A DNA stretch of 64,000 nt from a virus. Below are positions 7,516 through 51,401 of the stretch, one piece after another. The position numbers and the translations under genes are program-made. The DNA lies in IMG/VR virus record IMGVR_UViG_3300008017_000012. The stretch is one strand, 5' to 3'. How positions within the stretch are numbered: position 1 is the first letter of the stretch; each line of letters opens with the position of its first letter. The notes under the pieces were generated by a model. It was not told the origin of the DNA. It ran no database searches and saw nothing but the letters and a program-made list of their open reading frames with translations.

Positions 7516-7553
7516 TTATAATCTTTATTTTTTCAAATTAAAAAGGTAACTTA

Positions 7554-7961: not shown

Positions 7962-8052
7962 ATATACCTGAATTTGTAAATTTTCAACAATGGTTAGGTT
8001 GGTATGTTATTATTGTAACTGCTCTTGCTATTATTAAAAAAGGAAATAACTA

Positions 8053-8490: not shown

Positions 8491-8502
8491 AAAAGGATTA
8501 TC

Positions 8503-8697
8503 ATGAGAAATAAAACTGTTAAAAAATTGAATGCTTTTGTTGATTTACTTATTATTAATACTCCTCCAAAAGAACTAAATAAGTCTAGAGAAACATTATT
8601 AAAAGAAATTAAAACTCTCTGGAAATCTCAAGGTAAAAATGGAAAAATTTTTATTGATAAAGTTGTTAATGGGGAATTTTTTATTGAAAATAAATAA
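8503..8697 (+). CDS. Hypothetical protein
   Basis: ORF with AGGA RBS. Confidence 0.55.
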   Translation: MRNKTVKKLNAFVDLLIINTPPKELNKSRETLLKEIKTLWKSQGKNGKIFIDKVVNGEFFIENK

Positions 8698-8742
8698 AAT
8701 ATAAATAAATATAAAATACTATTATATAAAGGAGTAAAAAGT

Positions 8743-9357: not shown

Positions 9358-9376
9358 TTTTTAAATTTTTAAACTA

Positions 9377-9414
9377 ATAAAGGTTCTTAATTAAAAAATA
9401 CTAAGAACCTTTAT
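9377..9414 (+). terminator. Intrinsic terminator
   Basis: ATAAAGGTTCTTA / TAAGAACCTTTAT inverted repeat plus T run. Confidence 0.7.
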
Positions 9415-9482
9415 TTTTAAGTAAAAGATTTATTAAAAAATACTAAATAAAAATAAACAACATTTATTAAAGGAGAAAAACA

Positions 9483-9767
9483 ATGAGTACATTTGAAAAA
9501 TATCTTAAAGAAGCAAAAATGACTAAATCTGTTTTAAACAGAGCATTAATGGCAGTTGATGACACACAAGATCCAAATGCTTTAAAACATGAAGTTACAA
9601 ATTTTTATTCTGACCTCACAACTAAAACAGCTGAATTAAAAAAACTTTTTACCAAAGCTAAAAGTAAACCTAATCTTCCTGAAGTTCAGTTATTTATTGT
9701 AGCTTTTAGAAAACTTGAAGAAATTATTATGGGTAACACCAAAGATGATGTTGAGGAAGAAAATTAA
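9483..9767 (+). CDS. Putative internal head protein (MSTFEKYLKEA tag)
   Basis: AGGAG RBS; tag variant. Confidence 0.6.
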   Translation: MSTFEKYLKEAKMTKSVLNRALMAVDDTQDPNALKHEVTNFYSDLTTKTAELKKLFTKAKSKPNLPEVQLFIVAFRKLEEIIMGNTKDDVEEEN

Positions 9768-9772
9768 GTTTA

Positions 9773-10099
9773 ATGACTTCTAATATTGAAATTAAATTGG
9801 CACTTTGTTACAAAGTACCAAGAACTACTTCTTTTATTAATAAAGATATTTTAATATTTAAAAAAATTAATAGTTCTTTTCAAAAATTAGATAGAACTAA
9901 TAATGATATATATATATTAGAAATTTTTAATTTATTAAAAATATTAGATAATATTTTTGATATGCATAAATTATATTTAATATTATGTGAGTATATAGAT
10001 ATTGATTATCATAATACCTTAGCATTTTTAATAAATGAAATAGAAAAAGATAAAACTGATTATATCATAAAAAAATTAAAAGAATTAGTCAAGGAATAA
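9773..10099 (+). CDS. Hypothetical protein
   Basis: ORF within the late cluster. Confidence 0.55.
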   Translation: MTSNIEIKLALCYKVPRTTSFINKDILIFKKINSSFQKLDRTNNDIYILEIFNLLKILDNIFDMHKLYLILCEYIDIDYHNTLAFLINEIEKDKTDYIIKKLKELVKE

Positions 10100-10102
10100 T
10101 AA

Positions 10103-10606
10103 ATGGCCTCTTATATTCTTTCAGAAAACATGGTGTCAACAGTAGCATTATATATGATTTTAAAAAAATTAATGCTGCCATTTAATAAATGGGATGCATA
10201 CAAGTTAGGCTTGATTGATAAAGACGGCAAAAAACTTAAAAATGCAGTATCAGCTAAAGAAAAAAAAGCATGGGATTTGTTGACAAAATTTGTTTGGAAT
10301 TTTAAAAAGATTTTAAATAAATTTGTTGGAAGATCGAATTTAGCAACATATATTACAGCAGCATATTTATTAAAAGATTCTCTATCTACCTTTTATATAG
10401 AATATAATAAAGAAATTTTAAATGAAACTTTATTATCTGATTTAACTTATACTAAGCAAAATTCAATTTATGAATTATTGAAAAAAATAAATAGTCCTTC
10501 TGAAAAAATAACAGAAGAAAATTTTGAATATTATTTATTTCTTTTTTCACCTATAATTGAAAAATATTTAGATAATAAAACTCTAATAGTAAAGGATATT
10601 ATATGA
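10103..10606 (+). CDS. Conserved T4-like phage hypothetical protein (PFNKWDAYKLGLIDKDG motif)
   Basis: Motif recognised from T4-like structural regions; function unknown. Confidence 0.65.
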   Translation: MASYILSENMVSTVALYMILKKLMLPFNKWDAYKLGLIDKDGKKLKNAVSAKEKKAWDLLTKFVWNFKKILNKFVGRSNLATYITAAYLLKDSLSTFYIEYNKEILNETLLSDLTYTKQNSIYELLKKINSPSEKITEENFEYYLFLFSPIIEKYLDNKTLIVKDII

Positions 10607-16457: not shown

Positions 16458-16542
16458 TTTTCATTTAAAAAATATTATAATTTAATTAAGAACTCTTATG
16501 ACTATAAATAGTTATAAGAGTTTTTTAATTAAGGAAATAAAT

Positions 16543-19353
16543 ATGTTAGAAGATTTAACAACAGATATAAATGGAAAAGAATTAGCTTTTAAAGGTGATT
16601 CCTCATTAAAACAATGTGGTGCAAAATTAGCATTTACAAAAGAACATACAGAAGAATTTCTAAAATGTTCTAGTGATTGGAAATATTTTATAGAAAAGTA
16701 TCATCATATTATCTCTCTTGATGATGGAATCACTAAAATAAAATTAAGACCATATCAATTAAAACTTATTGAAAATTATATAAGCCATAGATTTAATATA
16801 GTATTAGCTTCAAGACAATGTGGTAAAACAGAGTCTTATGTAGGCTTCATTCTGCATTATATATTATTTAATGAAAATAAATCCGTTGCAATTCTAGCAA
16901 ACAAATTAAAAACAACAAAAGGAATTTTACAAAAAGTCAAACAAAGTTATTCTCTATTACCTAAATTTATTCAACAAGGGGTAAAAACATGGAATAAAAC
17001 AGAAATTGTATTAGAAAATGGATGCAGTGTTTTTGCATCAGCCACCACTGGTTCATCTATTCGTTCTGGTAGTGCAAATATTGTAATAATTGACGAATGT
17101 GCATTTATACAGTCTAATACTTGGACAGATTTTTATGAATCTACCTATCCTACAATTTCATCATCAAAAGAATCAAAAGTAATAATGGTGTCATGTGTTA
17201 TTAAAGATACTTTTGTTTTTAGTGATAAAGGTTTAACTCAGATAAAAAATTTAATTAACCCAAACAAAAATAAAGGTTATGAGGTAGAAAAATATGTTAT
17301 AAGAGGTAAAGATAAATTAAGAACTGGTAATATTATGTATAATAATGGTTTAGCTAAAACTAAAATATTAAATACAAGTTTTGGTGAATTAGAATGTTCT
17401 TTATCTCATAAATTATGGTCTTGTGTTAATGGTATATATGGATGGCATAAAGCTGATGAGATAAAAGTAAATGATTTTATTTCTTTAGAATATAATATGA
17501 ATATTTTTGGTAATAATGATGTTATAAATTTTAATCCTCTCATATCTTCTAATAGAATTAAAAATACATTTAAATGTGAAAAAATAGATAAAGATATTGC
17601 TTATTTCTTAGGATTATTTATTTCTAAAGGATATTGTGAAAAAATATTTGCTAAAAATGGAAAATTAAAAGATTCTAAAATTGTTATAACTTCTGAGGAT
17701 TCTCTTGAAACAATTTTAAATAAATTAAATTTAACATTTTCATGTAGAGATGAAATTCATTATATTATTAATTCTACTCAATTAATGTTATTTTTTGAAT
17801 TTTTAGGATTTGATTTTAATAAAAAAGAAAATGAAAAATTAATCCCTGATAGATTATTACAAATGAGTAAAGAAAATATAATAGCTTTGTTACAAGGAAT
17901 ATTTGATGGTAATGGAGATTCTAAAATTGTCAATGGAACAGTAAGTTATACATCAGAATCAAAAACATTAGTTTATCAAGTCAAAATGTTATTATTAAAT
18001 TTAGGATTATTAACAGATATTAAAAAAAATATAACACTATCAAATGATAAAGTTCATTCAACTGATTATATTGCAAGCATGAATACATATTATTCAAAAA
18101 TTTATTATGATTTAATTGGATTTAGAATTGAAAGAAAACAAATTAAAAGAGATAATTTAAAAAAATCTAATGGATCTAAAGATTTATTTGATTTAATTCC
18201 TTATGCAAAAAAAATATTAAAATTAAAAAACCCTAAAGAAAACATAAAGTGGTTTAGTGTTAATGAAATTTCATATTCAGAAAATGAAGTTTATGATTTT
18301 TCATTACCAGATGATGATAAAGATGAATGGTGTCATTCTGTCTTATATAATGGTTATATAGGTCATCAAACACCAAATGGGATGAATCATTTCTATAAAT
18401 TTTGGGAAGATTCTATTAATAAAAAAAATGTTTATAAAAATACTAGAGTTGATTGGTGGGAAGTTCCTGGTAGAGATGAAAAATGGAAAGAAGAAACAAT
18501 AGCAAATACTTCAGTTGTTTCTTTTGCTCAAGAATTTGGTAATGATTTTTGTGGTAGTGTAGCAACACTTATTGATCCTTTAAAATTAAAAGAAGTTAAA
18601 TTTTCACCTTCATTAGAAGTTTCAAATATTCATAATAGAATATCAGAAGAATATCATCGTTTTATAAAAATTTATAAAGAACCAATTAAAGGGCATATTT
18701 ATTCAATAGGAGTAGATTCATGTAAAATGACAGAAGAAAATTCAGGTGATGCGCTTGGTATGCAAGTCATAGATATAACAAAATTTCCTTATGAACAAGT
18801 AGCAACGTTTTTTGCAAAAGAAGGGTTCAATTATTTATTTGCACCAGAAATTGCAGTATCATTAGGTAATTATTATAATAGTGCATATATGTTTGTTGAA
18901 AATAATGAAGTAGGTCAAGAAGTAGCTAATGCAATTCATTTTGATTATGAATATGAAAACATATATTTTGAAAAAGGTAATACAGCTGGTTATAGAACTA
19001 CAAAAAGAACAAAAAGATTAGGTTGTACTAATTTAAAATTATTAATAGAAAAAAATAAAATTATTTTAAATGATTTTGATACAATTTCTCAATTATCAAC
19101 TTTTATAAAAGTAAAAAATTCTTTTAAAGCAGAAAATAGTTATCAAGATGATTTAGTCATGGCATTAATCTCAGCAATATTTTTTATGATAAATAAAGAT
19201 TTAGATATAGGTGAATTAGAAGATACACAAACAATGTTATCTATTTTAAAAAATGAAAAAGAAGAAATTGAAGAAACCCCTACTTTTGGTGTTTTGCCAA
19301 GTGATGAATATGAAGAACATTCTCAAATTGATATAGATGGGTTCTCTTGGTAA
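16543..19353 (+). CDS. 17: Terminase large subunit (T4 gp17-like) containing an intein
   Basis: SRQCGKT Walker A, IIDECAF Walker B, STPNG split by the intein, DDLVMAL nuclease motif; start moved to the RBS-supported ATG 16543. Confidence 0.93.
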   Translation: MLEDLTTDINGKELAFKGDSSLKQCGAKLAFTKEHTEEFLKCSSDWKYFIEKYHHIISLDDGITKIKLRPYQLKLIENYISHRFNIVLASRQCGKTESYVGFILHYILFNENKSVAILANKLKTTKGILQKVKQSYSLLPKFIQQGVKTWNKTEIVLENGCSVFASATTGSSIRSGSANIVIIDECAFIQSNTWTDFYESTYPTISSSKESKVIMVSCVIKDTFVFSDKGLTQIKNLINPNKNKGYEVEKYVIRGKDKLRTGNIMYNNGLAKTKILNTSFGELECSLSHKLWSCVNGIYGWHKADEIKVNDFISLEYNMNIFGNNDVINFNPLISSNRIKNTFKCEKIDKDIAYFLGLFISKGYCEKIFAKNGKLKDSKIVITSEDSLETILNKLNLTFSCRDEIHYIINSTQLMLFFEFLGFDFNKKENEKLIPDRLLQMSKENIIALLQGIFDGNGDSKIVNGTVSYTSESKTLVYQVKMLLLNLGLLTDIKKNITLSNDKVHSTDYIASMNTYYSKIYYDLIGFRIERKQIKRDNLKKSNGSKDLFDLIPYAKKILKLKNPKENIKWFSVNEISYSENEVYDFSLPDDDKDEWCHSVLYNGYIGHQTPNGMNHFYKFWEDSINKKNVYKNTRVDWWEVPGRDEKWKEETIANTSVVSFAQEFGNDFCGSVATLIDPLKLKEVKFSPSLEVSNIHNRISEEYHRFIKIYKEPIKGHIYSIGVDSCKMTEENSGDALGMQVIDITKFPYEQVATFFAKEGFNYLFAPEIAVSLGNYYNSAYMFVENNEVGQEVANAIHFDYEYENIYFEKGNTAGYRTTKRTKRLGCTNLKLLIEKNKIILNDFDTISQLSTFIKVKNSFKAENSYQDDLVMALISAIFFMINKDLDIGELEDTQTMLSILKNEKEEIEETPTFGVLPSDEYEEHSQIDIDGFSW
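17194..18369 (+). mobile_element. Intein (392 aa) in gp17, Cys start, His-Gln end, +1 Thr, degenerate LAGLIDADG domain
   Basis: MVS|CVIKDTFV...YNGYIGHQ|TPNG; blocks YFLGLFISKG and LLQGIFDGNG. Confidence 0.9.
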
Positions 19354-24234: not shown

Positions 24235-24707
24235 AAACATTCAAACAATTTATTACAGAAAAAATATTTTATAGAGGATTATCAGATAAATATGATCCAT
24301 CTTATAAAACACATATTGAATGGTTTTCTGAAACAGAAGAATTAGCAAAAGATTATGCAGGCAATGAAGAAAATTCAACTATCATAACAAAAAATTTATC
24401 TAATAATATTATTGAAAGATCATTCCAACATGGGTTTAGAACAGCTTTTACTGAAATTAAAGCTTCTGACTTCATTTCTAGAATAAAAAATGGAATAAAT
24501 ATTGCCTTTAAAAATAAATGGATTTCTAGAGAAGAAGGAATAAAACTTTTTGATGAAATAGATAATTTAGATTTACCAAAAGGATTTAAACGAGTATTTG
24601 ATTGGTGGAATTCTTATCCACCTTTTATTAATATTTTAAAAAAAGCTGGATATAAAAGTATACATAATATAGAAAATAATATTAATACCTATGGAGTTTT
24701 TAAATGA
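24231..24707 (+). CDS. MKTFKQFITE-tagged protein with ADP-ribosyltransferase-like fold
   Basis: FYRG...WFS...LAKDYA pattern resembles the ART beta1/beta2 motifs. Confidence 0.6.
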   Translation: MKTFKQFITEKIFYRGLSDKYDPSYKTHIEWFSETEELAKDYAGNEENSTIITKNLSNNIIERSFQHGFRTAFTEIKASDFISRIKNGINIAFKNKWISREEGIKLFDEIDNLDLPKGFKRVFDWWNSYPPFINILKKAGYKSIHNIENNINTYGVFK

Positions 24708-25261
24708 TTTCTTTTAAACAGTTTATAAATGAAAGTAAAAAAATAATTGCTTATCATGGTTCAAAAGATGTAATTGATGATTTTAAATATGATTATACCA
24801 ACAAAGGAAATGATCAATTAGGTAGTGGTTTTTATTTTACAACAGATAAAAATGAAGCAAAAAGTTATGGTAAAAATGTTCATGAAGTAGAATTAACTTT
24901 AGATAATCCTATTGATGCTGAAAAAATAGGTAATCTTTCTATTCAACAAGCTAAAATGTTTATTAAAAATGCTCCTAATTATAATGAAGATCTTATGAAT
25001 TGGGGTGATGTTGATAGAGAAGGTGAAGAAAAAGTTTTAAAAACTGCATCAGAAGCTTATGCTTTCAAAAATAGAATTATTGTTAGAGCTTTGTTTAATT
25101 TAGCTAATGATTTCTATAGAGATGAAACTGAAGAATTTAATAAAAATGTTAAGAAAATTTTAGGATTTGATAGTTTATATAAAAAACATGAAAATGGTGC
25201 AATCCATTATGTTGCCTTTTTCCCCTCTCAAATAAAAATACTAAAGATTGTTCCTGAATGA
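24704..25261 (+). CDS. MISFKQFINE-tagged ADP-ribosyltransferase-like protein
   Basis: AYHGS...F...LGSGFYFTTDKNEAKSYG, typical of the ART domains of phage polyvalent proteins. Confidence 0.7.
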   Translation: MISFKQFINESKKIIAYHGSKDVIDDFKYDYTNKGNDQLGSGFYFTTDKNEAKSYGKNVHEVELTLDNPIDAEKIGNLSIQQAKMFIKNAPNYNEDLMNWGDVDREGEEKVLKTASEAYAFKNRIIVRALFNLANDFYRDETEEFNKNVKKILGFDSLYKKHENGAIHYVAFFPSQIKILKIVPE

Positions 25262-28868: not shown

Positions 28869-29354
28869 ATGTCTAAAGATAAAAAATATTATCAAATTTC
28901 AGATTTATACCCATTATTACAACATCCGGAAAAATACAAAGGGAAACGTCCAATTCAGATGAGATCTAGTTGGGAAACAAAATTTGCCCTTAAATGGCTT
29001 GATATTAATATTAATATAATTGAATGGTCTAGTGAAGAAATTATTATTAAATATTTTAATCCTATTAAAAATAGAAATGCTAGATATTTTATGGATTTTT
29101 CTTTCAAAGCTAAAAATAAAAATGGTGATATAAAAGAATTTTGGGTTGAAATTAAACCTTCAGCTGAATGTACTGAACCAAAAAAACAAACAAGAATAAC
29201 TAAATCTTATAAATATAAAATTGAAACTTATATAACAAATAAAGCAAAATGGGATGCAACAGAAAATTTATGTGAAAGTTTAAGACAACAAGGTAAAGAT
29301 ATAACTTTTATGAAAGTAACTGAAAAAGATGCTCCATTCTTTTTAAGAGGTTAA
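28869..29354 (+). CDS. 4: Head completion nuclease (T4 gp4-like)
   Basis: PEKYKG..PIQMRSSWE...WSSEEIIIKY...RYFMDF...VEIKP. Confidence 0.9.
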   Translation: MSKDKKYYQISDLYPLLQHPEKYKGKRPIQMRSSWETKFALKWLDININIIEWSSEEIIIKYFNPIKNRNARYFMDFSFKAKNKNGDIKEFWVEIKPSAECTEPKKQTRITKSYKYKIETYITNKAKWDATENLCESLRQQGKDITFMKVTEKDAPFFLRG

Positions 29355-31847: not shown

Positions 31848-34220
31848 ATGAAAATTAAAACAAAATTTATAAAAGATCTTCAAAATTCTGAGGGGTATAA
31901 TTCTGAAAGCTTTGTTCCTGTCTCAGATGGCGGTGTTACTAAAAAATTAAAAGAATCTGAATTAGCCCCTGTTAGAAGTTTTAATGGCAGAATAGGCGAT
32001 GTAGAATTTACACAAGATGATTTTGATTCAAAATTATCTATCCATACTAACCCATCTGCTAGTGTTGACCCTCATCCACAATATCTAAGAAGTGCTGTTG
32101 CTTTCCCTGTTAAATCTGTTCAAGCTGTTGATAAGTTTGGCGCTATTTCTCCAATTCAATATGGTAATATTTTTCTGAATGTTTCTGATTTTGGCCTAGA
32201 TCAAGTTGATAATACAAGTGATTTGAATAAACCAATTTCTAATAATACTCAAAATGCTCTTGATTTAAAATCTGATATTAATAATAGTCATTTAACAGGT
32301 ACAACTGTTATAGATAATTTAAGTGTTTCAGGTTCTGTGTCAGGTATTGATAAATCTGATGTTGGCCTAGATCAAGTTGATAATACAAGTGATTTGAATA
32401 AACCAATTTCTAATAATACTCAAAATGCTCTTGATTCAAAAGTTAATGCTAATAATAGTCATTTAACAGGTACAACTGTTATAGATAATTTAAGTGTTTC
32501 AGGTTCTGTGTCAGGTATTGATTATAATATGTTAGAAGGGGATATTAATTATATCTCTTTAAATAATGCTCCAACAATACCAGCATTTAAAGAAGGAAAT
32601 AGTTATTGGGATAATGAAAATAAATGTATTTCAACACAATTAACACAAGATGTTACATTACAAAATGGTCAAGAAATTCATGTGTATGTAAGTAATATTT
32701 CAGGAAGTACAATTACTAATGGAACTGTAGTTTATATTGATACACATAATAATGGTTATCCAACAATTCAAAAAACTAATAATACTGAAACAATGGAAAG
32801 TCATGTTCTAGGTGTTGCAACTCAAGATATTCTTAATAATGATCATGGCTATGTAACAGCTTATGGATTTGTACATGATATAGATACTTCTTCTTGTACA
32901 GAAGGACAAATGGCATATTCTGATGAAAATGGAAATTTAATAACCACAAGACCTGTACCACCTGATTACCCTGTTTGTGTTGGTAAAATAATCATTTCTC
33001 ATGCTGTTTCAGGAAGTATTTTTGTTGATCCAGGTGATGCAGCTTCTATAACTTCATTAACAGATATGTTTGCTTCATCAAAAGATCCTACTGGTTGGGT
33101 AGATCCAAATAATTTAATTATTAACTATTCTGCTTCTGGTAGAACTATTTCTTTAACTCATTCTATTCCAGGCAAAAATATTGAATATATGTGGCAGGGT
33201 TTAAAGAAAAATATTGGAACTTCTTGGGTTTCTCCTCAACATCCAGCTACTTTAGATAAACAATATTTTTTATTTTCTTCTGATGGTGTTACTTTTAATT
33301 GGTCAGAAATGTCTTGGGCATTTAGTGATATTATGGTTGCTTTTGTTAATTATGGAACAATTGATAAATATTGTATTCGGGAGACTCATGGTTTGATGCC
33401 TTGGCAAGTACATGAAGAGTTTCATCAAATACATGGCACATATAGAATATCAGGCGGTACTTTATCTAATTATGTTTTATCATCAACAACAGCAGCTAAT
33501 AGAAGACCTTTTGTCACTGAAACACTTATTAAAGACGAAGATTTAAAAACATATAATCCATTACTTAATACTGCTTTATATACAAGAATGCATTTAGAAT
33601 CAACAGGTTTAAATATATTTTCAAAATCAAATAGTGATATTATTGCGTTATCTGGTAATCAACCATATTATAATCAATTTACTGGTGGAACATGGGTACA
33701 AACATTAGTTGCAAATAATGAATATACTACAGTTTGGTTAATTTCTGCACCAATGGCAGCAGATAGTAATTCACAAGCATATAGATATATATGGTTACAA
33801 GGACAATCATCAGGTAGTTTAACTTCGCAAGAAGCTTTATTTCCAAGTGATTTAAATTTAGGATTTTTAGGAGAGTTAACAACAGAGTTTATTTTTATAA
33901 CAAAACTAATTATTAGATATACTTCTAGTAATTGGTTTATAGTATCAGTAAGTGATTTAACAGGCACAAGACAATCAACCACAGGTGTTGGTACATCAGG
34001 AGTTTATTTATCAGCTGTTACAACAGATCTTTCACTTAATGGATTAGGAACATCTGTATCACCTTTATCATTATTAAATTCAGAAGGTGTTGGATTCATA
34101 CCTAATTCAACTGTAATACCAGTTGCTGACCCTGTTGGTGGTGGTTATTTTTATGTTGAAGCTGGAGCTTTAAAATATAGAGGTTCTTCAGGTACAATTA
34201 CTACTATAGCGAATGCATAA
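31848..34220 (+). CDS. Fibre/virion structural protein, 790 aa
   Basis: VGLDQVDNTSDLNKPIS fibre repeats, DPHPQY motif, beta-rich composition. Confidence 0.65.
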   Translation: MKIKTKFIKDLQNSEGYNSESFVPVSDGGVTKKLKESELAPVRSFNGRIGDVEFTQDDFDSKLSIHTNPSASVDPHPQYLRSAVAFPVKSVQAVDKFGAISPIQYGNIFLNVSDFGLDQVDNTSDLNKPISNNTQNALDLKSDINNSHLTGTTVIDNLSVSGSVSGIDKSDVGLDQVDNTSDLNKPISNNTQNALDSKVNANNSHLTGTTVIDNLSVSGSVSGIDYNMLEGDINYISLNNAPTIPAFKEGNSYWDNENKCISTQLTQDVTLQNGQEIHVYVSNISGSTITNGTVVYIDTHNNGYPTIQKTNNTETMESHVLGVATQDILNNDHGYVTAYGFVHDIDTSSCTEGQMAYSDENGNLITTRPVPPDYPVCVGKIIISHAVSGSIFVDPGDAASITSLTDMFASSKDPTGWVDPNNLIINYSASGRTISLTHSIPGKNIEYMWQGLKKNIGTSWVSPQHPATLDKQYFLFSSDGVTFNWSEMSWAFSDIMVAFVNYGTIDKYCIRETHGLMPWQVHEEFHQIHGTYRISGGTLSNYVLSSTTAANRRPFVTETLIKDEDLKTYNPLLNTALYTRMHLESTGLNIFSKSNSDIIALSGNQPYYNQFTGGTWVQTLVANNEYTTVWLISAPMAADSNSQAYRYIWLQGQSSGSLTSQEALFPSDLNLGFLGELTTEFIFITKLIIRYTSSNWFIVSVSDLTGTRQSTTGVGTSGVYLSAVTTDLSLNGLGTSVSPLSLLNSEGVGFIPNSTVIPVADPVGGGYFYVEAGALKYRGSSGTITTIANA
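32191..32522 (+). repeat. Near-perfect tandem duplication, 171-nt (57-aa) period
   Basis: TTGGCCTAGATCAAGTTGATAATAC starts at 32191 and 32362. Confidence 0.9.
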
Positions 34221-34265
34221 TTTTTATAAATAACATAAACTATATATATTAAGAGGAGTTTACTT

Positions 34266-34526
34266 ATGGATTTTAATCAAGTTTTAAAAAAATTAGAAGA
34301 GCAAGAAATTGAAGTTGAATATAATATTCCTTCAGGTAAAGAATCTATTGCTGATAGAGTGTTTTCACCTTTATTGAAACAACAATCTCAAAAAAATAAA
34401 AATAAAATTTCTGCTTCACCTGCATTACAAAAAACTGGGCCTAATAAAGGTAAAAAAATTAAAGTTCGGTATAGAAATGCGCAAGAAAAAGAAGCTTATG
34501 AACGTAAATTAGGAATTGGAGAATAA
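34266..34526 (+). CDS. Hypothetical late protein
   Basis: Late promoter at 34225-34232; GAGGAG RBS. Confidence 0.65.
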   Translation: MDFNQVLKKLEEQEIEVEYNIPSGKESIADRVFSPLLKQQSQKNKNKISASPALQKTGPNKGKKIKVRYRNAQEKEAYERKLGIGE

Positions 34527-34528
34527 CT

Positions 34529-35011
34529 ATGTTATCTCAAGAAATATTAGAAGCTCTTAATGATCAAGCACAACATGAAAAAACAAATTCTTATATATAT
34601 AGGAATTTTGCAGGTATTGCTGATTATCAATCACTATTAGGAACAACAAAATGGTTTATGAAACAAAGTAAAGAAGAAGCAAGCCATTTTGACCTTGTTG
34701 TTAATTATATTCAAAACCAAGGTCATATACCAAAATTATTATCTATCCCTGAACAAGATAATACAAATATTACTCTTTATGATATGTTTGTTAGAAGTTT
34801 AGCAACTGAAATAGAAACTCTTGAAAAACTCAAAAAAATATGTTCACTTTGTAAATTAGAAAATGATGATCAAACTTATAAATTAATACTTGATATGGTA
34901 TATGAACAAATTGAAGAAGTGAAAACAGTTAGTGATATTTTAAATAGAATTAAACAAGCAGGTACTGGTTTAGGATTTATTATTATTGATCAAGAATTGG
35001 CTAATAGATAA
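34529..35011 (+). CDS. ftn: Non-haem ferritin
   Basis: LNDQ..HE...Y...WF.KQS.EE..H...YEQIEE ferroxidase-centre pattern. Confidence 0.85.
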   Translation: MLSQEILEALNDQAQHEKTNSYIYRNFAGIADYQSLLGTTKWFMKQSKEEASHFDLVVNYIQNQGHIPKLLSIPEQDNTNITLYDMFVRSLATEIETLEKLKKICSLCKLENDDQTYKLILDMVYEQIEEVKTVSDILNRIKQAGTGLGFIIIDQELANR

Positions 35012-35072
35012 TAGATATTTAAAGGGGGTACCGGACAAGCCTCATTATATCATCTAGTACCGTATCTGTCAA
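35012..35072 (-). promoter_or_regulatory. Perfect-consensus sigma70 promoter, antisense to ferritin (copy B)
   Basis: TTGACA (35072-35067), 17 nt, TATAAT (35049-35044). Confidence 0.8.
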
Positions 35073-35096
35073 CCTCTTTCTAAGAAAGAAAAATGA

Positions 35097-35267
35097 ATGA
35101 ATATTAAAAAAATATGTATTAAAATCTTATTAACACTACCTGCAATTGGTTTAGGAATTTTAGCTTTACTTATTCAATTATTTTTTTCTATAACTGAATG
35201 GCTAAGAACATTTGTTTTATTTCAACCAATTATAGATTTGTGGTTTCCAAATAATTTAAAGGAATAG
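35097..35267 (+). CDS. Small membrane protein, 56 aa
   Basis: Manually translated MNIKKICIKILLTLPAIGLGILALLIQLFF...; one long hydrophobic stretch. Confidence 0.5.
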   Translation: MNIKKICIKILLTLPAIGLGILALLIQLFFSITEWLRTFVLFQPIIDLWFPNNLKE

Positions 35268-35269
35268 AT

Positions 35270-35845
35270 ATGAAGTGGTCAGATGTAGGTGATTGGGTAA
35301 AAGAAAATGCTGGGGCTGGCGTTGGATTAGTTGGCTCTCTTTTAACTGGTAATATTCCTGGTGCTATTGCAGCAGGGGTTTCAATGGTGTCTAGTGCTAC
35401 TGGTAGTGATGATCCTGATAAAGCTTTATCTATTTTACAATCTAACCCTGAAGCTACTTTGAAACTTAAAGAATTATATTTCAAAAATGAAGATTCCATT
35501 AGAAGTCATTTAGAACAAATGACTAAACTTGATCTTGAAGATAAACAAAAAGAACATGAACAAACTCAATTGACTATTCGTAATGCCGATAATGCTACTG
35601 ATGAATATGTCAGAAGAACTAGACCTAAAATGGCTAAACAAAGTTTTTGGCTTGGCTCTCTTTATTGCTGTATTATGGAATTAGGAAATTCAATTTCTTT
35701 CTTTGATTCTAATAATATTGAACACCAATTATTATCAAGTGGCGCTAATTGGGAAATTGCTACTCTTTTATTTTCAGGTGCTTTTGCTTATATGGGGTTA
35801 CGTACTATGGATAAAATTAAAGGCAAAAATTCTATAATTAAATAA
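35270..35845 (+). CDS. Holin-like membrane protein (3TM-holin type)
   Basis: Gly-rich N-terminus, coiled region, VRRTRP followed by hydrophobic helices ending FAYMGLRTMDK. Confidence 0.65.
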   Translation: MKWSDVGDWVKENAGAGVGLVGSLLTGNIPGAIAAGVSMVSSATGSDDPDKALSILQSNPEATLKLKELYFKNEDSIRSHLEQMTKLDLEDKQKEHEQTQLTIRNADNATDEYVRRTRPKMAKQSFWLGSLYCCIMELGNSISFFDSNNIEHQLLSSGANWEIATLLFSGAFAYMGLRTMDKIKGKNSIIK

Positions 35846-35884
35846 CTATAAATAAATATAAACTACTTAAGGAGACTATTTACT

Positions 35885-37834
35885 ATGGCAATTGGCGATT
35901 TAACAGTTGTTGGATCTAATCTAACAGGGATTTCATGTTCAGGAAATTATCATGGTGAATTTACTGGGGATCTTGTAAAACCAGTAAAAAATGAGCAAGT
36001 TCTTCTTGCTGATCTTAAAAATATTATAGGTAATCCAGGTGATACTGTATATATGACAGGAAGAACCTCACCAGGTGATGGAGATGATGGTACTTTCTAC
36101 TGGGATTCTAGTGACTTATCAGCTAAAGTAGCAACTGATACTCTTAGTGATATATATGTTGCTCCGAATATAGATTTGACCGGGGCAAGCGGAGGGTGGG
36201 TGCGGCAGCTCATTAGTGCCACTCAAGCCGAAATGGAAGCAGGCACCGAAACCGCGCTTCGTTCTATGTCGCCACTACTGGTTCGGCAGGCAATAGATGC
36301 TCAGATGCCAAACAATATTATTGGTGCACCTGGGGAAGCAGGTTTTGGTGTTGGCATTGCCCCTGCCTCAGCTGTCCCAGAAGGAATGACGTATCTTGGG
36401 ACGTCATTCCTTCTGGGAGATAATTACGGCAATTACCAGTTTTCTGATGGTTCCATCATGTGCTACGTACCGAAGTTTTACTACCGCATAGCTCATGTCA
36501 GTAATCCAACCTATGCAACCTACGGGGTTAACTCGTGTGATGTTAAAGGGGTCAACACCTTTGCAACTACCGCAGATGCCAACGCCGCAGGCTATGCGCT
36601 GCATCGTGCTTTTATTGACGGCGGTACCGAAAAAGATGGATTTTTTGTTGATAAATATATGTGTAGTAAAAACGCCCTTGGCAGTGGTTTTGTTGCCAGT
36701 TCCCTTCAAAACGGTCTGCCAATTTCAACCAACAATACCCATAACCCAATTGCCGCCCTGACCGCCTGCGCGGACAACTATAATTACGAAGCGATTAATG
36801 CTGCTCATGCCCGTGACGGTATAGATGGGGCAATTAATCCTGATTCGATTTTTTTCTGCAACTCTCGTCAAATTCATGGAGCACTGGCGCTGCTCTCCCT
36901 CGCTCACGGCCAAAAATCCTTAAATACCACAAACTGCGCCTGGTATGATGCTACCTACAATTTCCCCAAAGGTTGTAACAATAACGCCCTGGGGGATGCA
37001 AACGATGCCACTATCGCTTACACCAGTGATGGTTTTGACAACTGCGGGAAGACCGGCAGTGGTACCCCGTTTGCAAAAACCACACACAATGGCCAAGCGT
37101 GCGGCGTAGCTGATTTGAACGGTTTGATGTACGAGGTCAATATTGGTCTAACCTGTATCGCCACTACCAAAACAATAACCGCAATAACGCAAGCCAACCC
37201 CTGTCAGGTTACTGTTGTCGGTCACGGACTGACAACAGGAGACTACGTACTAATTGGTAGCCTTGCTGGCATGACGGAACTTAGAAATAAAATCTATAAG
37301 GTCACGGTTGTTGATGCGAATAACTTTACCTTGTATGGTGTTAACTCAACGGCCTTTTCTGCCTATATCGGCGGGGGTACTGCCATTATAGGTACATTTT
37401 ATCGGGCAGCTGATAGTACAGAGATGCGCAATTTTACCGCAGGCAACACACTGGCAACAGATCATTGGGGGGTCACAGGAGTCACCGCAATGATGACGCC
37501 GTTTGTTCCTGCGTTTGCGGCAACCTACCCTAGCAACAATTCTACTCAGCGTTTTGGTTCATCGGCGGAGCAGGTTATTGCCAGTAATGTTAGCGGAGAC
37601 GCCTGGGAAATGGCGGGGCTGGGATTTCCGCGGCAGACGGCAATCTCCCAAGTAGGCACAAATTTGTTTGGTGTAGATTATTACTATCAATATGTGCGTC
37701 ATGATCTGTGCCCGGCTTCGTCCCACTTTTGGCAAAATTTGACGCTGGCCGGGATCTGGTCGTTCGACTTTACCTCTTACCGGACGACTTCGAGCAACAT
37801 TTTCGGGTTCCGTACCGCCTGTTACCCTGCTTAA
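35885..37834 (+). CDS. Chimeric tail fibre / receptor-binding protein with C-type-lectin (FGE/Mtd-like) C-terminus
   Basis: AT-rich N-terminus with a GDGDDGTFYWD tailspike motif; GC-rich remainder with FFVDKY, GVADLNGLMYE and a terminal ...AGIW...GFR variable-region pattern; late promoter at 35847-35854. Confidence 0.75.
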   Translation: MAIGDLTVVGSNLTGISCSGNYHGEFTGDLVKPVKNEQVLLADLKNIIGNPGDTVYMTGRTSPGDGDDGTFYWDSSDLSAKVATDTLSDIYVAPNIDLTGASGGWVRQLISATQAEMEAGTETALRSMSPLLVRQAIDAQMPNNIIGAPGEAGFGVGIAPASAVPEGMTYLGTSFLLGDNYGNYQFSDGSIMCYVPKFYYRIAHVSNPTYATYGVNSCDVKGVNTFATTADANAAGYALHRAFIDGGTEKDGFFVDKYMCSKNALGSGFVASSLQNGLPISTNNTHNPIAALTACADNYNYEAINAAHARDGIDGAINPDSIFFCNSRQIHGALALLSLAHGQKSLNTTNCAWYDATYNFPKGCNNNALGDANDATIAYTSDGFDNCGKTGSGTPFAKTTHNGQACGVADLNGLMYEVNIGLTCIATTKTITAITQANPCQVTVVGHGLTTGDYVLIGSLAGMTELRNKIYKVTVVDANNFTLYGVNSTAFSAYIGGGTAIIGTFYRAADSTEMRNFTAGNTLATDHWGVTGVTAMMTPFVPAFAATYPSNNSTQRFGSSAEQVIASNVSGDAWEMAGLGFPRQTAISQVGTNLFGVDYYYQYVRHDLCPASSHFWQNLTLAGIWSFDFTSYRTTSSNIFGFRTACYPA

Positions 37835-37855
37835 GCAACAATAAGGAGTTTCACT

Positions 37856-38281
37856 ATGCAAATCTACAGCTATCAAAAAATATCCGATGATTACACCACC
37901 TACACCGCACAAGGCAGTGAAGAAAGTCCGGTGCAAGAGTTGTGTACAATTGACGGGACAACCTATTTTTACGGCCCAGACGAGCTGCCTCCGCAGCCTG
38001 AGAAGATTACAGTTGTGCCGGTAGTATTGACCGAGGAGTTACGTACTGCGATTAAAGCCGCTAGCCCAATGTGTCAATTGTCGTATCGCCGTACAAAAGC
38101 CCGCATCCGCGAGCGATACAGCCAAGAAGATGAAACATTTCTCGCCCGTATCGGCGTCGGCCAAGCTCTTGGGGTCTATCAAATGTCACCAGGAGAAATG
38201 CAAGAGCTGGCGGATTACCAAGCGTTTGTTGAAGAACAACGTGCCTGGGGTCGGGAACAACGGGAGCTGATAGGATTATGA
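37856..38281 (+). CDS. Hypothetical protein, possible fibre assembly/chaperone
   Basis: AAGGAG RBS; directly after the fibre gene in the island. Confidence 0.65.
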   Translation: MQIYSYQKISDDYTTYTAQGSEESPVQELCTIDGTTYFYGPDELPPQPEKITVVPVVLTEELRTAIKAASPMCQLSYRRTKARIRERYSQEDETFLARIGVGQALGVYQMSPGEMQELADYQAFVEEQRAWGREQRELIGL

Positions 38282-38397
38282 GCGACAAGTATAATCTGAT
38301 GAGATACTTAATAATAGCATTGATATTATTGTTGCCCTGTTCGGTCTCCGCCGACAATTACTATTATCTCTTTGGTGTAAAAGTCACGCTTTGGTAA
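38278..38397 (+). CDS. Small hydrophobic peptide, 39 aa
   Basis: MSDKYNLMRYLIIALILLLPCSVSADNYYY...; overlaps the upstream stop. Confidence 0.4.
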   Translation: MSDKYNLMRYLIIALILLLPCSVSADNYYYLFGVKVTLW

Positions 38398-38409
38398 AGG
38401 AGCCACACA

Positions 38410-38832
38410 ATGATCTTATATATTAGATTGGCCGGTATCACCCCGGAAACTTACACCGATGAATTAGCACGTACCGCCTTGCACAGTGCCGCGCTGGAGA
38501 TTCAAGGGCTGAATGCCGCAGTGCCGGGCCTTGCGTTTGACCCAATTAAATCAACCCCAGCGACATGGGATGAGGATGGTAACACAGACCTGCTCACCAG
38601 GCCGATTGAGACCTTTTTAGGCAACTGCAACACGCCGCCGAACGCATGGGGAGATGTAGGCGTACAGATTGACAATTACAACTGGCTGGAACTACCGCCG
38701 GGAATCGCGCCCAAAACGTTTTCTATTACCCTTGGTCGACCGATCCGTCAAACCGTTGACGCTGAGGGCAACCCGGTAACGGTGGAGGTTGGCATGATAG
38801 CCGGGGCGACGATTGAGCCGGAGACGTTATGA
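38410..38832 (+). CDS. Hypothetical protein
   Basis: AAGGAG RBS; island codon usage. Confidence 0.65.
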   Translation: MILYIRLAGITPETYTDELARTALHSAALEIQGLNAAVPGLAFDPIKSTPATWDEDGNTDLLTRPIETFLGNCNTPPNAWGDVGVQIDNYNWLELPPGIAPKTFSITLGRPIRQTVDAEGNPVTVEVGMIAGATIEPETL

Positions 38833-39044
38833 GTGACAAGTACAGCCAAAAATGGGTAACGCTCTTTTCCAAAGCGGATAAGTGGGCCATTACCTTAGGG
38901 CAGACAACCTATTACAGCTGCAACGAATTTGCAATCACACCAAGCTGGAGACGGCACGAAGAGGAGCATAAACGCCAGTGGCGTGAGCACGGTTGGCTCT
39001 TTGCGTTGAAATACTTGTGGGAGTTGCGCAAGGGGTTGAAGTAG
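38829..39044 (+). CDS. Small HExxH-like protein, possibly truncated at the island edge
   Basis: WRRHEEEHKRQW...KYLWE; ends exactly where GC content drops. Confidence 0.5.
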   Translation: MSDKYSQKWVTLFSKADKWAITLGQTTYYSCNEFAITPSWRRHEEEHKRQWREHGWLFALKYLWELRKGLK

Positions 39045-39057
39045 TTAAAAATATTTT

Positions 39058-39110
39058 TATAAATAAATATAAATAAGTATGAAAAGCTATGAAATAAATT
39101 TTTATAAATA
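39058..39110 (+). promoter_or_regulatory. Three TATAAATA late-promoter boxes
   Basis: At 39058-65, 39068-75 and 39103-10, followed by an AGGAG RBS. Confidence 0.7.
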
Positions 39111-39129
39111 CTATTAGGAGAAACAAAAA

Positions 39130-39288
39130 ATGAAAGTAGTTAGAGTGACAAATGAAGAGTTTGAATTAGAAGATGGGTCTATTCATCCTATCTTGTTTGA
39201 ACTTGATTATACTCCTACCGTAGAAGAATTTCAACTTATATACGATGAATCAGTAAAACAACTGGAATCTATACTACATGACAAATGA
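39130..39288 (+). CDS. 52-aa acidic ORF coupled to IS607 tnpA
   Basis: MKVVRVTNEEFELEDGSIHPILFELDYTPTVEEFQLIYDE...; its stop overlaps the tnpA start region. Confidence 0.7.
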   Translation: MKVVRVTNEEFELEDGSIHPILFELDYTPTVEEFQLIYDESVKQLESILHDK

Positions 39289-39901
39289 AAAATTATATAC
39301 ATTATCTGATGTAGCCAAATTATTAAATGTTCATCAAGACACTTTAAGACTATGGGATAAATCTGGTAAATTGGTTTCTATAAGAACTAAAGGTGGGCAC
39401 AGACGATATAAAGAATCTGTTGTTCATGAAATGATGAATATTATCAAAGAGCCAGAAGTTATATCCAATGTAATTTGTATTTACTGTAGAGTATCATCAA
39501 ATGAACAGAAAACCAAAGGTGATTTAGAAAGACAGAAGCAACGTCTATATGAATACTGTATACAAAAGAAATACATAGTTGAATACATTTTTGAAGAAGT
39601 TGGTAGTGGGTTGAATGATAAAAGACCTAAACTACTCAAGATGATGGATTTAGCTAAAGAAAGAAAACTAACTAAAATAGTTATAGAGCATAAAGATAGA
39701 TTGATTAGATTTAATAAAAATATACTAATCAAGTATTTTGAAAGTCATGGTGTTACCGTAGAATGGAGTCAAGAAACATTAGAACTGTCATACCAAAATG
39801 AACTAGTAGAAGATATGCTTTCACTTATAGCCTCATTCAGTTCTAAACTTTATGGTAAACGTAGTGCTGAAAATAGAAAAATTAAAAAAAGAGAACTCTG
39901 A
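39278..39901 (+). CDS. tnpA: IS607-family serine recombinase TnpA
   Basis: N-terminal MerR-like HTH (TLRLWD..GKL..IRT.GGHRRY); YCRVSS, EVGSGLN.KR, EHKDRL.RF, ELVEDML. Confidence 0.95.
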   Translation: MTNEKLYTLSDVAKLLNVHQDTLRLWDKSGKLVSIRTKGGHRRYKESVVHEMMNIIKEPEVISNVICIYCRVSSNEQKTKGDLERQKQRLYEYCIQKKYIVEYIFEEVGSGLNDKRPKLLKMMDLAKERKLTKIVIEHKDRLIRFNKNILIKYFESHGVTVEWSQETLELSYQNELVEDMLSLIASFSSKLYGKRSAENRKIKKREL

Positions 39902-40058
39902 TGAATAAAAATACTCCACTAATAACACCGACTTTTAAAAAGAGTTATCCTATAATAGATATAGAACCTAAAATTATGACAGATTGGGAATTTACTATTC
40001 GTAAGCTAAAACTATTAACATTGTGTTGTAGAGGTGAAGATGGATGGTGTAGATTAAA

Positions 40059-41273
40059 ATGATTAGAACAACAGAACATTCATTAAAATATATTACTGAC
40101 TACAAGAAACAAAAACTTGATATTTTGTTTGATGAATATCAACGTGTAGTCAACCAATATATTAATGTGTTCTGGAATCAAACATCATGGAAATCTAAAG
40201 CAACAGCAGATGAATATAAATTAGTAGATTCTTGGCTTATGGGTAAAGTGATGAAGTGTGCTTATGCTCAAGCTATACAAATGATTCGTTCAACCAAAGA
40301 TAAACAAAAGAAATTAGTTTACAAACAATACAAAAGAGTTTATAGTAAAGCTAAACGTAAGAATAAAAATTGGGATATAGTAAATCAAACCTTTACGGTT
40401 TGGAGCAAAGATAAAACTTTCAGAGATAGAACTAAAATTCCTTTCTTCTCTGGAGATTCTATAGAACTCAATTCTGACTTATGTAAGATATATCAAGATG
40501 TCTCTATATCTCATTTTGATATGGTTGTTAGATTGGGTTCGATATGGGGAAATAGGCTTTCATTAGAGTTACCAATAAGAAAGCACAAACATTTCAATCA
40601 ACTGTTTGCATCTGGTTTTGGTGTAAAAACGTCTTTGAGATTGAGTAGAAAGAACAACAAATATAGCATCAATCTCTATATGTCAAAAGACTTTGAACAA
40701 GTAAAAGATGAAGGGAATATTATAGGGATTGACGTTGGCATTAAAAAACTTATGTCGGTTAGTGATGGTACTTTTATTGGAACTGATATAGAATCAATTA
40801 TTAGAAAGTATAAAAGAAGAAAGCAAAATAGCAAAAACAGTAAGAAAACATTAAAGCAAATAAAAGACTATATCGGGCATTCTGTTAATCAACTCAACTT
40901 TACTGATACACAATGTATTGTTATGGAAGAGTTAAAGCCAAGTAATATGTTAGTCAAAGGTAAATCTAGTAAAGAGTTTAGAAAAATATTAAGTAAATGG
41001 AATCAAAACTTGTTAGTGGAAAGAATACAAAATAAATGTGAGCTTAACCGTGTTGAGCTTCAGTTTGTTTTACCACATCATACAAGTCAGCAGTGTTCTC
41101 AATGTGGAGAAATCCATAAAGAGTCAAGAAAAGGCGAACTATATCAATGTGTTGGTTGTGGTTATACGATAGATGCAGACTACAATGCTTCATTGAATAT
41201 AGTTAATAAATTCTTGAATAAGGAATTTACCGTTCCTTCTAATACAAAAACTACCATTCCTAGATTTTCATAG
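40059..41273 (+). CDS. tnpB: TnpB RNA-guided RuvC nuclease
   Basis: GIDVG (D), VMEEL (E), TSQQCSQCG...CVGCG zinc finger, DADYNAS (D); all three acidic residues present. Confidence 0.93.
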   Translation: MIRTTEHSLKYITDYKKQKLDILFDEYQRVVNQYINVFWNQTSWKSKATADEYKLVDSWLMGKVMKCAYAQAIQMIRSTKDKQKKLVYKQYKRVYSKAKRKNKNWDIVNQTFTVWSKDKTFRDRTKIPFFSGDSIELNSDLCKIYQDVSISHFDMVVRLGSIWGNRLSLELPIRKHKHFNQLFASGFGVKTSLRLSRKNNKYSINLYMSKDFEQVKDEGNIIGIDVGIKKLMSVSDGTFIGTDIESIIRKYKRRKQNSKNSKKTLKQIKDYIGHSVNQLNFTDTQCIVMEELKPSNMLVKGKSSKEFRKILSKWNQNLLVERIQNKCELNRVELQFVLPHHTSQQCSQCGEIHKESRKGELYQCVGCGYTIDADYNASLNIVNKFLNKEFTVPSNTKTTIPRFS

Positions 41274-41305
41274 GTTTGGTTGAACGGTATTTTACTAATC
41301 AGAAA

Positions 41306-41599
41306 TTAAATAGTATCAGATTTTGGTGAACCACTAACAATTGTTGCTATCATAGGGCCAATAACAGAATCCCCAACTCTACCAACACCTCTTCCTTCTA
41401 TAGTAGAAACAGAGCTACCAGAAGCAACAACACCAGTATGGCCACAACTAAAAGTCACAATATCACCAACTCTGACCCCTGGTTTATCATCAATAAAAAC
41501 AACATTAGAGCCACTTGATATAACACCAGTAACAGAAATAGGTTTATCATGTGCTCTACAAATACCAGTTGCAATATCACCTACTCTTGCTAATTGCAT
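41306..41599 (-). CDS. PAAR-repeat spike tip protein (T4 gp5.4-like)
   Basis: ARVGD repeats, CRAH and CGH metal ligands. Confidence 0.9.
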   Translation of the reverse strand: MQLARVGDIATGICRAHDKPISVTGVISSGSNVVFIDDKPGVRVGDIVTFSCGHTGVVASGSSVSTIEGRGVGRVGDSVIGPMIATIVSGSPKSDTI

Positions 41600-41611
41600 A
41601 TTAAAATTTCA

Positions 41612-42316
41612 TTAAAGCAAAGGAATTTGAGGGAAGAGAATATTAAAATCATTATTCATACCTCTATCAATAATAAATTCTTCTAATTTCATATCATCAA
41701 GCAAATAATCTTTTGTAGATTTAAAAATATCTTTAGTTTTAGATGAGCGAAAAAGTTGAAAGAGGACTTTATCAGAAATTGCATTTTGAACAGAATCGGG
41801 TAAATTTTTCCAAGAATCTAATTCAGCAATAGCATGAGCAGGTATATCAATTTCGATAATATTAAATTCAGGTGTTTTTTCTATAGTAACAGAATAATTA
41901 GGTGGATCAAAAGGAGCAGGGCCACCAGATGCATCTTCATTAATTAATTCTGTAGCAATAAAAGGTAATACAGTAATTATCTCATTAGAAGTTGGTAATT
42001 CATATATTGGTGTAAGATTTAATAAAGAATTATTAGTACAAATATCAACTGGATCAATATTATTTTCGACAAAAATTGTTGAATATTTTAGTGAACAATA
42101 AGAATATAAAGTTGTTAATTGTGATTTAATAACATCAGAAGTTATTAAATTATTATATGAGATTGCATTTATCCAATCTTCAATATTTGTTCCTGTTTCA
42201 TCAGAGACAAGATAGCCTTGAGATTCTAAATCAGCAATGAAAGAAGATTTTTCAACATTCATTGCTGAAATAATATCAGATTTCCAAATTACTAAATTTT
42301 CTTCAGTTAAAATCAT
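41612..42316 (-). CDS. Hypothetical protein
   Basis: Long ORF in an operon with PAAR. Confidence 0.6.
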   Translation of the reverse strand: MILTEENLVIWKSDIISAMNVEKSSFIADLESQGYLVSDETGTNIEDWINAISYNNLITSDVIKSQLTTLYSYCSLKYSTIFVENNIDPVDICTNNSLLNLTPIYELPTSNEIITVLPFIATELINEDASGGPAPFDPPNYSVTIEKTPEFNIIEIDIPAHAIAELDSWKNLPDSVQNAISDKVLFQLFRSSKTKDIFKSTKDYLLDDMKLEEFIIDRGMNNDFNILFPQIPLL

Positions 42317-51314: not shown

Positions 51315-51401
51315 ATATAAACCTTTTATTATAGTTTATATTTATTTATATAAAAAAATATTTATAAAAATAGTTTATTTGAGGGGAGATAATTTCTAAG
51401 A

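Follow-up and report, generated by a model that had tools for sequence, protein, structure and literature searches.

The 64,000-nucleotide viral sequence IMG/VR IMGVR_UViG_3300008017_000012 (hereafter the window, meaning this whole stretch of DNA) contains at 35885-37834 an open reading frame (ORF) that is the last large gene of a rightward structural block and appears to encode a receptor-binding tail fibre. We consider, with a probability of about three in four, that this gene is a horizontally captured, frozen target of a diversity-generating retroelement (DGR). Its C-terminus is a genuine DGR-type variable region (VR) of the C-type-lectin class of DGR variable proteins. The segment with bAvd, template repeat (TR) and reverse transcriptase (RT) that follows the homologous gene in its relatives is missing, and most of the gene lies in a GC-rich island within the AT-rich genome of a T4-like phage.

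A DGR-type variable region at the end of the putative fibre gene

A protein-collection search with the target yielded 2971 homologues at E <= 0.001 among 8000 scored, and the best 120 of these share 50-70% identity with it over 54-90% of the query. The relatives come from uncultivated viral contigs and from contigs of metagenome-assembled genomes (MAGs), the closest viral-contig match being 62% identical. The last 45 residues align without gaps with the C-termini of 119 listed homologues, and all share the scaffold ...NELCLLSxGxWxxxSxAGVWxxxWxxxRxxSxxxVGFRxACYP. Thirteen columns of this alignment of 120 proteins are hypervariable, and Gln, Lys, Glu, Met or Trp occur at them in only 4 of the 120, a spectrum that mutagenized AAY codons would be expected to produce. 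The residues of the window protein at the 13 columns fall within this family spectrum except for one Gln (CAA), which cannot be obtained from AAY mutagenesis and fits ordinary drift after freezing.

To learn how the gene is organized elsewhere, 41 related loci were fetched from viral contigs, 33 of which include the end of the gene. A TR, present in 27 of these 33, is a 110-122-nt ungapped near-copy of the VR located 430-540 nt downstream; among the other six, one contig (L034) ends where the TR begins, one (L015) could not be assessed, and four have no TR. In the 27 viral pairs, 500 of 524 VR/TR mismatches fall at TR adenines, and a TR was likewise present in three of four loci on MAG contigs, where A accounts for 52 of 55 mismatches. 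Locus L004 encodes bAvd (PF22296, E 8.5e-16) between its repeats and an RT (RVT_1, E 2.3e-16) after them, and the order in the relatives is target, hairpin, bAvd, TR, RT and then a conserved 140-aa gene. The adenine-specific VR/TR pairs, together with bAvd and RT, show that the family is a true DGR target, arranged in the canonical order target-avd-TR-RT. A first-pass annotation of the window had proposed from the DNA letters that the C-terminus fits a C-type-lectin VR, and both the gap-free scaffold and the VR/TR pairs of the 27 relatives support this assignment.

The same annotation had named a different fold as the result that would overturn its proposal. An AlphaFold2 (AF2) model of residues 140-649, built with 63 homologues, gave a predicted fold of the C-type-lectin/formylglycine-generating enzyme (FGE) type found in DGR variable proteins, and the proposal thus withstands this check. 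The best structural match of the model was TaqVP, a DGR variable protein of Thermus aquaticus (5vf4; Foldseek E 1.5e-12), and in a VIA comparison with this structure 301 residues were aligned over model residues 27-509 (Z 31.3, rmsd 2.9). Further VIA matches were TvpA (Z 12.3), Mtd (Z 11.9-12.3) and FGE itself (Z 10.5-10.8). The E1_FCCH-like barrel inserted in the lectin domain resembles the FCCH domain of UBA6 (Z 14.7 over model residues 286-365). A PDB search with the family profile matched phage tail proteins at this insert only and did not recover Mtd or TaqVP, both of which the fold comparison found. PF18454, which we take to be the Mtd N-terminal domain, is present in 8 of the 120 listed homologues.

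Absence of the mutagenesis module from the window

The first-pass annotation had found neither an RT nor a TR in the window, and dedicated searches gave the same result. A blastn comparison of 37600-37860 with the rest of the window detected no TR, the longest identity being 12 bases; Pfam searches of the 63 ORFs of the window detected no RT (RVT_1 none) and no Avd; and when 84 avd/TR/RT ORFs from the 27 DGR-bearing loci were compared with the window by tblastn, the VR itself was the only match at E < 0.05. An RT-like tblastn match at 1218-1301 was rejected as chance (E 0.14-0.6, 28 aa, no catalytic motif).

The site from which the module is missing can be located with the gene that follows the target, ORF 37856-38281. 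Of the 41 viral loci, 28 carry a homologue of this ORF (E 1e-45 to 8e-06). The distance from the end of the target to the start of this homologue is 25-356 nt in TR-less loci, compared with about 1.64 kb in DGR-bearing ones such as L004, L003, L023 and L022. Both genes that flank the cassette are thus present in the window without its contents, indicating that a mutagenesis module of about 1.6 kb is cleanly missing.

The cis element of the relatives is missing as well. Inspection by eye found a palindromic core centred on G(A/G)TA (GCGATAGC or a variant) 10-35 nt past the VR in all 27 DGR-bearing loci. Strict ungapped scans recovered this post-VR hairpin in only 10 of the 27, missing others because many stems are bulged, and a folding test was used instead. 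In it, G(A/G)TA lies in a tetraloop in 24 of the 27 loci, and dG is <= -3 kcal/mol in 20; in the window it found no hairpin of this kind within 90 nt past the VR. For the DGR of Bordetella phage BPP-1, one report describes a 24-bp hairpin/cruciform-forming sequence just downstream of the VR that is required for efficient retrohoming and whose loop acts in a sequence-dependent manner (PMC3240598). By analogy, retrohoming into the VR of the window would probably be poor even with a DGR provided in trans.

Comparison of the variable region among metagenomes

Natural DGR turnover is visible at the contig level in this family. Six contigs from six metagenomes (L024, L025, L026, L028, L029 and L040) represent one DGR-bearing phage and show no difference in 1100 nt upstream or in the TR, and 14 of the 15 pairs differ at 10-18 of 113 VR positions. 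A comparison of contigs is thus able to detect activity. The window stretch occurs in 23 runs from aquifer, groundwater and hot-spring metagenomes, four of which were compared, as contigs and therefore at the consensus level. In runs X1, X3 and X21 single contigs span the VR and do not differ from the window in it, and these contigs differ from the window or from each other at 37542, 37545, 37908, 38144 and 39668. Two haplotypes therefore share one VR.

Several points weigh against a captured and frozen gene or soften the evidence for it. Contig assemblies drop minority variants, the source sample may be among three of the four runs compared, and a single campaign may have yielded the samples. 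The fourth run, X23, has no coverage at 37653-37794, with one contig starting at 37795; this hole is uninformative because X23 is assembled only in fragments throughout the gene. In L058, a JGI contig from the same phage, position 41 (37794 in the window) reads N, at the middle base of an AGC codon equivalent to AAC. This N is possibly a polymorphism at an adenine-templated site, although DGR homing leaves a pattern of many variable sites rather than one. Twelve codons are almost invariably AAY in the TRs of relatives, and at these the window has non-Asn residues at 10 and NNY at 10 (the exceptions being CAA and CTG); the first-pass annotation had read such NNC/NNT codons as a sign of adenine mutagenesis, and the pattern is indeed there, but against a background of 64% NNY in the rest of the gene it is not significant alone. 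Excess drift of the VR scaffold, which would be expected after freezing, was rejected: rare residues occupy 2 of 19 conserved columns, an ordinary amount within the range of the family, so the scaffold gives no positive sign of long neglect. The fibre role is predicted from family context, namely matches to PHROG tail clusters and the position after structural genes. Finally, the 64 kb that were searched belong to a genome no smaller than 156 kb, leaving room for a remote RT and TR.

That last point bears on the best surviving alternative, in which an RT and its cognate TR located outside the window, in the phage genome, the host or a co-infecting phage, still diversify the VR in trans. Most of the phage genome does lie beyond the window, the target ORF is intact and its AF2 model confident, the 3' end of the VR (…GCCTGTTACCCTG) resembles that of active relatives, and the N of L058 and the X23 contig start fall next to each other within the VR. 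Remote DGR targets are known (PMC4891356). We nevertheless regard this as unlikely. The module is missing from the exact site where relatives carry it, the hairpin is gone, and the VR is the same in X1, X3 and X21 despite nearby single-nucleotide polymorphisms (SNPs), whereas contigs of a relative do reveal VR turnover. Moreover, a cognate TR would need a second GC-rich island, and the window has none.

Probable repeated loss of the module in relatives

A still less probable alternative is that the arrangement without avd, TR and RT is ancestral, so that the gene was never a DGR target and the retroelement inserted later in the relatives. TR-less loci do occur in several branches, and the junctions in the window and in one relative (L032) show no recognisable scar. 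Remnants of the module in other TR-less loci argue for the opposite direction. In L036 a hairpin past the VR and a bAvd truncated to 95 aa separate the target from the downstream gene, and in L017 the target is followed by an RT C-terminal remnant (RVT_1 positions 151-204). The TR-less locus L031 is nearly identical to the DGR-bearing L030, except that its target is followed by about 300 nt that include the post-stop sequence of L030 with the GCGGTAGC core. These remnants, and the near-identity of L031 and L030, make loss demonstrably the direction in those loci. Loss is complete and window-like in L032, where the stop codon is followed by 24 nt with AAGGAGTTTCA and then by the start of the next gene. 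When a tree was built from the protein without its VR, the five TR-less rows fell at scattered positions between DGR-bearing ones, which points to repeated, independent loss. In the window itself, the non-Asn residues and NNY codons at AAY-equivalent positions, and the fit of the 13 hypervariable residues to the DGR-generated spectrum of the family, also speak against a gene that was never diversified. The direction of change in the window was thus probably loss rather than gain.

Two further loci may be mentioned here. In L017, the target region (7000-10500) has 54-58% GC within a viral contig of 40-45% GC, a second case resembling the window. At the MAG locus L056, no TR was found in the 4 kb downstream, and its post-stop sequence at about 2473-2560 resembles the start of the avd of relatives; this locus may be another decayed cassette.

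A GC-rich island of probable foreign origin in a T4-like phage genome

The window has a GC content of 27.1% and encodes a T4-type virion and replication gene set. Its backbone is T4-like in portal, capsid, sheath, tube, neck, terminase and replication genes: the portal matches Portal_T4 (Pfam, E 8e-113), and further Pfam matches include Gp23, T4 neck protein, gp15, gp19, sheath, Terminase_6N/6C, clamp loader, topoisomerase II, RNase H and a UvsX/RecA-like protein. The portal is at most 35% identical to those of known phages in the phage collection, and the phage is therefore an uncultivated and distant member of the T4-like group. Its genes occur on contigs as long as 156 kb, and the genome is thus at least 156 kb in size, of which 64 kb are readable. 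A megablast search of window positions 35000-40000 against 50,697 phage records gave no match, and tblastn of the target against the phage records gave 18 weak partial matches, at most 36% identical, to Campylobacter-type and gut phages. An exact 64-nt stretch from the right end of the window had no match in metagenome contigs.

Against this background, a change-point fit on 33000-42000 placed breaks at 36180 and 39044, with a GC of 0.496 inside and 0.300 in the flanks. The left rise occurs within about 36050-36180, inside ORF 35885-37834. The G+C fraction at third codon positions (GC3) of the first 55 codons of the target resembles that of the portal (0.11), whereas it is 0.47 in the rest of the target and 0.48-0.67 in the three downstream ORFs. 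Homologues of the target span only about aa 65/144 to 649, which is the GC-rich part of the gene. Taken together, the GC break, the GC3 contrast and the restriction of homologues to the GC-rich part show that the gene is chimeric, with an acquired tip joined to a native N-terminus that presumably anchors the fibre to the virion. The capture was probably recent, since the GC of the island has not been ameliorated. The MAG relatives are labelled Planctomycetia, Deltaproteobacteria, Alphaproteobacteria and Burkholderiales, which is consistent with higher-GC donors and identifies no single donor. The capture of a pre-diversified adhesin, one of two explanations offered by the first-pass annotation, is thus favoured by the island together with the missing module and hairpin and the unchanged VR. 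This support concerns the capture itself, and the temperate phage that the annotation named as the source would be one possibility.

The extreme jump from 27% to 49.6% GC inside an ORF could also suggest a metagenomic misassembly of two organisms, which is highly improbable, as single contigs from X1 (35033-41500) and X3 (35033-41002) cross both junctions, those of X21 (35033-39050) and L058 (37754-40829) cross the left and the right junction, respectively, the reading frame is continuous, and the island ends exactly at a stop codon.

Neighbouring genes and promoter-like motifs

The features of the region are listed in the table. The 16-nt motif TATAAATAAATATAAA contains TATAAATA, which we take to be the T4 late-promoter box. 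Four exact copies occur in the window (at 8700, 35847 and 39058 on the plus strand and at 51335 on the minus strand), where 0.24 are expected and none of 100 shuffles had four or more. All four lie a short distance before ORF starts and are probably late promoters of this phage; those at 35847 and 39058 bracket the acquired cassette.

ORF 37856-38281 matched viral hypothetical clusters only, with XkdW (0.87) as a mere lead. ORF 38410-38832 matched only two protein clusters and had no relatives among the viral contigs. A homologue 85% identical to it follows an unrelated leucine-rich-repeat (LRR)-type fibre gene in a phage of 38-40% GC (L059, L060). Judging by position, this ORF may be a fibre accessory gene, and the island may itself be mosaic. 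The gene upstream of the target (35270-35845) matched 12 loci of 41-68% GC without shared neighbours, the sole exception being a short target-like match in L047, and no AT-rich relative lacking the island was among these 12.

A second contig in X1, X3, X21 and X23 matches only 35861-35953, with about 88% identity (10-11 differences in 93 nt), and continues in X1 and X21 into AT-rich sequence. The match is confined to the start of the gene, and the contig may come from a paralogue or from a related phage in which the same N-terminus is followed by a native fibre gene.

Directly after the island lies an IS607-type unit (39130-41273; ORFs 39130-39288, 39278-39901 and 40059-41273), which encodes a serine recombinase with a MerR-type helix-turn-helix (Resolvase, E 9.5e-24) and a TnpB with a Cas12f1-like TNB domain (E 3.2e-17). 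This unit is AT-rich like the phage, and the arrangement is repeated in another sample (L058).

Elsewhere in the window, the large terminase (16498-19353, 951 aa) is interrupted by a LAGLIDADG_3 domain that follows the N-terminal ATPase part and precedes the C-terminal nuclease part; this domain probably marks an intein or an inserted homing endonuclease. Pfam also identified a macro domain (4035-4493), an ART-PolyVal ADP-ribosyltransferase domain (24704-25261), a TnsA-like endonuclease (28869-29354) and a ferritin-like protein (34529-35011, E 3.2e-23).

Table. Features of the fibre gene, the island and their surroundings (window coordinates)
Feature	Coordinates	Strand	Remarks
16-nt motif TATAAATAAATATAAA, left copy	35847..35862	+	Contains TATAAATA; 23 nt upstream of target ATG
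Chimeric gene, putative tail fibre/receptor-binding protein	35885..37834	+	649 aa; native AT-rich N-terminus and acquired TaqVP-like C-type-lectin domain (predicted), DGR-type VR at end
Native N-terminal codons	35885..36050	+	About aa 1-55; GC3 0.09, backbone-like
GC-rich island	36180..39044	.	Rest of fibre gene and three small ORFs; ends exactly at stop of ORF 38829-39044
Predicted C-type-lectin/FGE-fold ligand-binding domain	36302..37831	+	aa 140-649; AF2 pLDDT 93.3, pTM 0.93
E1_FCCH-like beta-barrel inserted in lectin domain	37220..37384	+	aa 446-500; Pfam PF16190, E 4.3e-09
VR equivalent	37707..37821	+	Mapped from VR/TR pairs of relatives; diversified at codons that are AAY in their TRs
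Spacer, putative deletion scar	37835..37855	+	21 nt, ribosome-binding site (RBS) AAGGAG; relatives have hairpin, bAvd, TR and RT here (~1.6 kb)
Conserved gene	37856..38281	+	141 aa; function not assigned; starts 21 nt after target stop; follows RT in DGR-bearing relatives
ORF in island	38410..38832	+	140 aa; only 2 protein clusters matched
Last ORF of island	38829..39044	+	71 aa; HEEEH motif; GC3 0.67; no family match
16-nt motif, right copy	39058..39073	+	14 nt past last stop codon of island

Discussion

Our findings suggest the following history for the fibre gene. The ancestral tip would have been diversified by its own DGR through adenine-specific mutagenesis of AAY codons from a TR, within the C-terminal 115 nt. 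The tip and its downstream gene would then have been joined by recombination to the native N-terminus of a T4-like fibre gene, the acquired sequence beginning at about aa 60-100. They would have arrived in an island of about 3 kb from a phage lineage of much higher GC, and the hairpin-avd-TR-RT segment would have been deleted either before or after this transfer. The outcome would be a VR fossil without template, enzyme or retrohoming cis element, which displays one fixed lectin-type binding surface and is presumably expressed late, from a native promoter and RBS, as an ordinary structural gene.

If so, the window provides a clean, datable example of a hypermutable receptor-binding gene after it has left its retroelement: scaffold, diversified codons and reading frame survive, and enzyme, template and cis hairpin are gone. 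Together with the four relatives on viral contigs, it would indicate that the target of a DGR can persist after the DGR itself is lost and can pass from one phage to another, unrelated one, and the repertoire of exchangeable adhesins in T4-like phages would gain a lectin-type fibre tip of foreign origin. Such RT-less target genes are overlooked by RT-based surveys, and a VR-like C-terminus alone should not be scored as active hypermutation.

More tentatively, capture followed by freezing could be a recurrent route to new host ranges, in which DGR phages generate tips, other phages take one that fits, and the module is then deleted; we think this possible, though rather less than an even chance. 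In that case the window, L017, L031, L032 and L036 would be independent instances with locked specificity, and the takers would include large lytic T4-like phages of very different base composition.

Parts of this picture have precedents. The first-pass annotation had called a DGR unusual for a lytic phage, a claim weaker than it was put, as DGRs on apparently lytic phages are described in PMC7981956. Horizontal transfer of DGRs with deviant GC is likewise described (PMC5758913). RT-less DGR remnants, GC-deviant DGR transfer and lytic-phage DGRs are thus already known, and what is added here is the T4-like host genome, a GC gap of 22 points, a scar-free deletion that includes the hairpin, and loci with graded loss. 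The literature that was searched yielded no T4-like phage reported to carry a DGR or the remnant of one, which is no proof that none exists.

In structure, the closest known protein is TaqVP (PDB 5VF4), which shares with the window protein the predicted C-type-lectin/FGE-type fold and the C-terminal position of the variable residues. Their sequence identity is only 13-19%, and the window protein differs by its inserted E1_FCCH-like barrel (aa 446-500) and by its phage-fibre N-terminus. TaqVP is part of a DGR according to the title of its PDB entry, whereas the window has no RT or TR with its protein.

Another close counterpart is Mtd of Bordetella phage BPP-1 (PDB 1YU0-1YU4), also a phage receptor-binding protein with a C-terminal VR of C-type-lectin (CLec) fold. 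BPP-1 is a temperate podovirus, whereas the window phage is T4-like. Mtd is 12-15% identical in sequence to the window protein. Its DGR (mtd-avd-TR-brt) has the same order of target, avd, TR and RT as the relatives of the window gene and, like them, a hairpin after the VR (PMC3240598 for the hairpin), but the window has neither hairpin nor avd, TR or RT.

As regards the mode of acquisition, the shuffling of modules in T4-like phages offers a parallel. PeSLs are elements composed of an early promoter and a stem-loop. One report concerns promoter-terminator motifs that mediate modular shuffling in T4-like phages (PMC4122927), and the cassette of the window is bracketed by two exact 16-nt late-promoter-like motifs, but its left recombination joint lies inside the gene (about 36050-36180), away from the motif.

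As regards loss, the nearest counterparts are bacterial. Among isolates of Treponema denticola, those lacking the core DGR have RT-less targets that are read as remnants (PMC4891356). For the RT-less target all3226 of Nostoc, the authors suggest that selection of a good variant may be followed by removal of the components needed for diversification (PMC7517822). These genes resemble the window gene in having kept a VR-type C-terminus without RT and TR. They are, however, chromosomal bacterial genes, whereas the putative remnant in the window resides on a lytic-type T4-like phage, appears to have moved across a 22-point GC gap, and is accompanied among its relatives by graded deletion intermediates.

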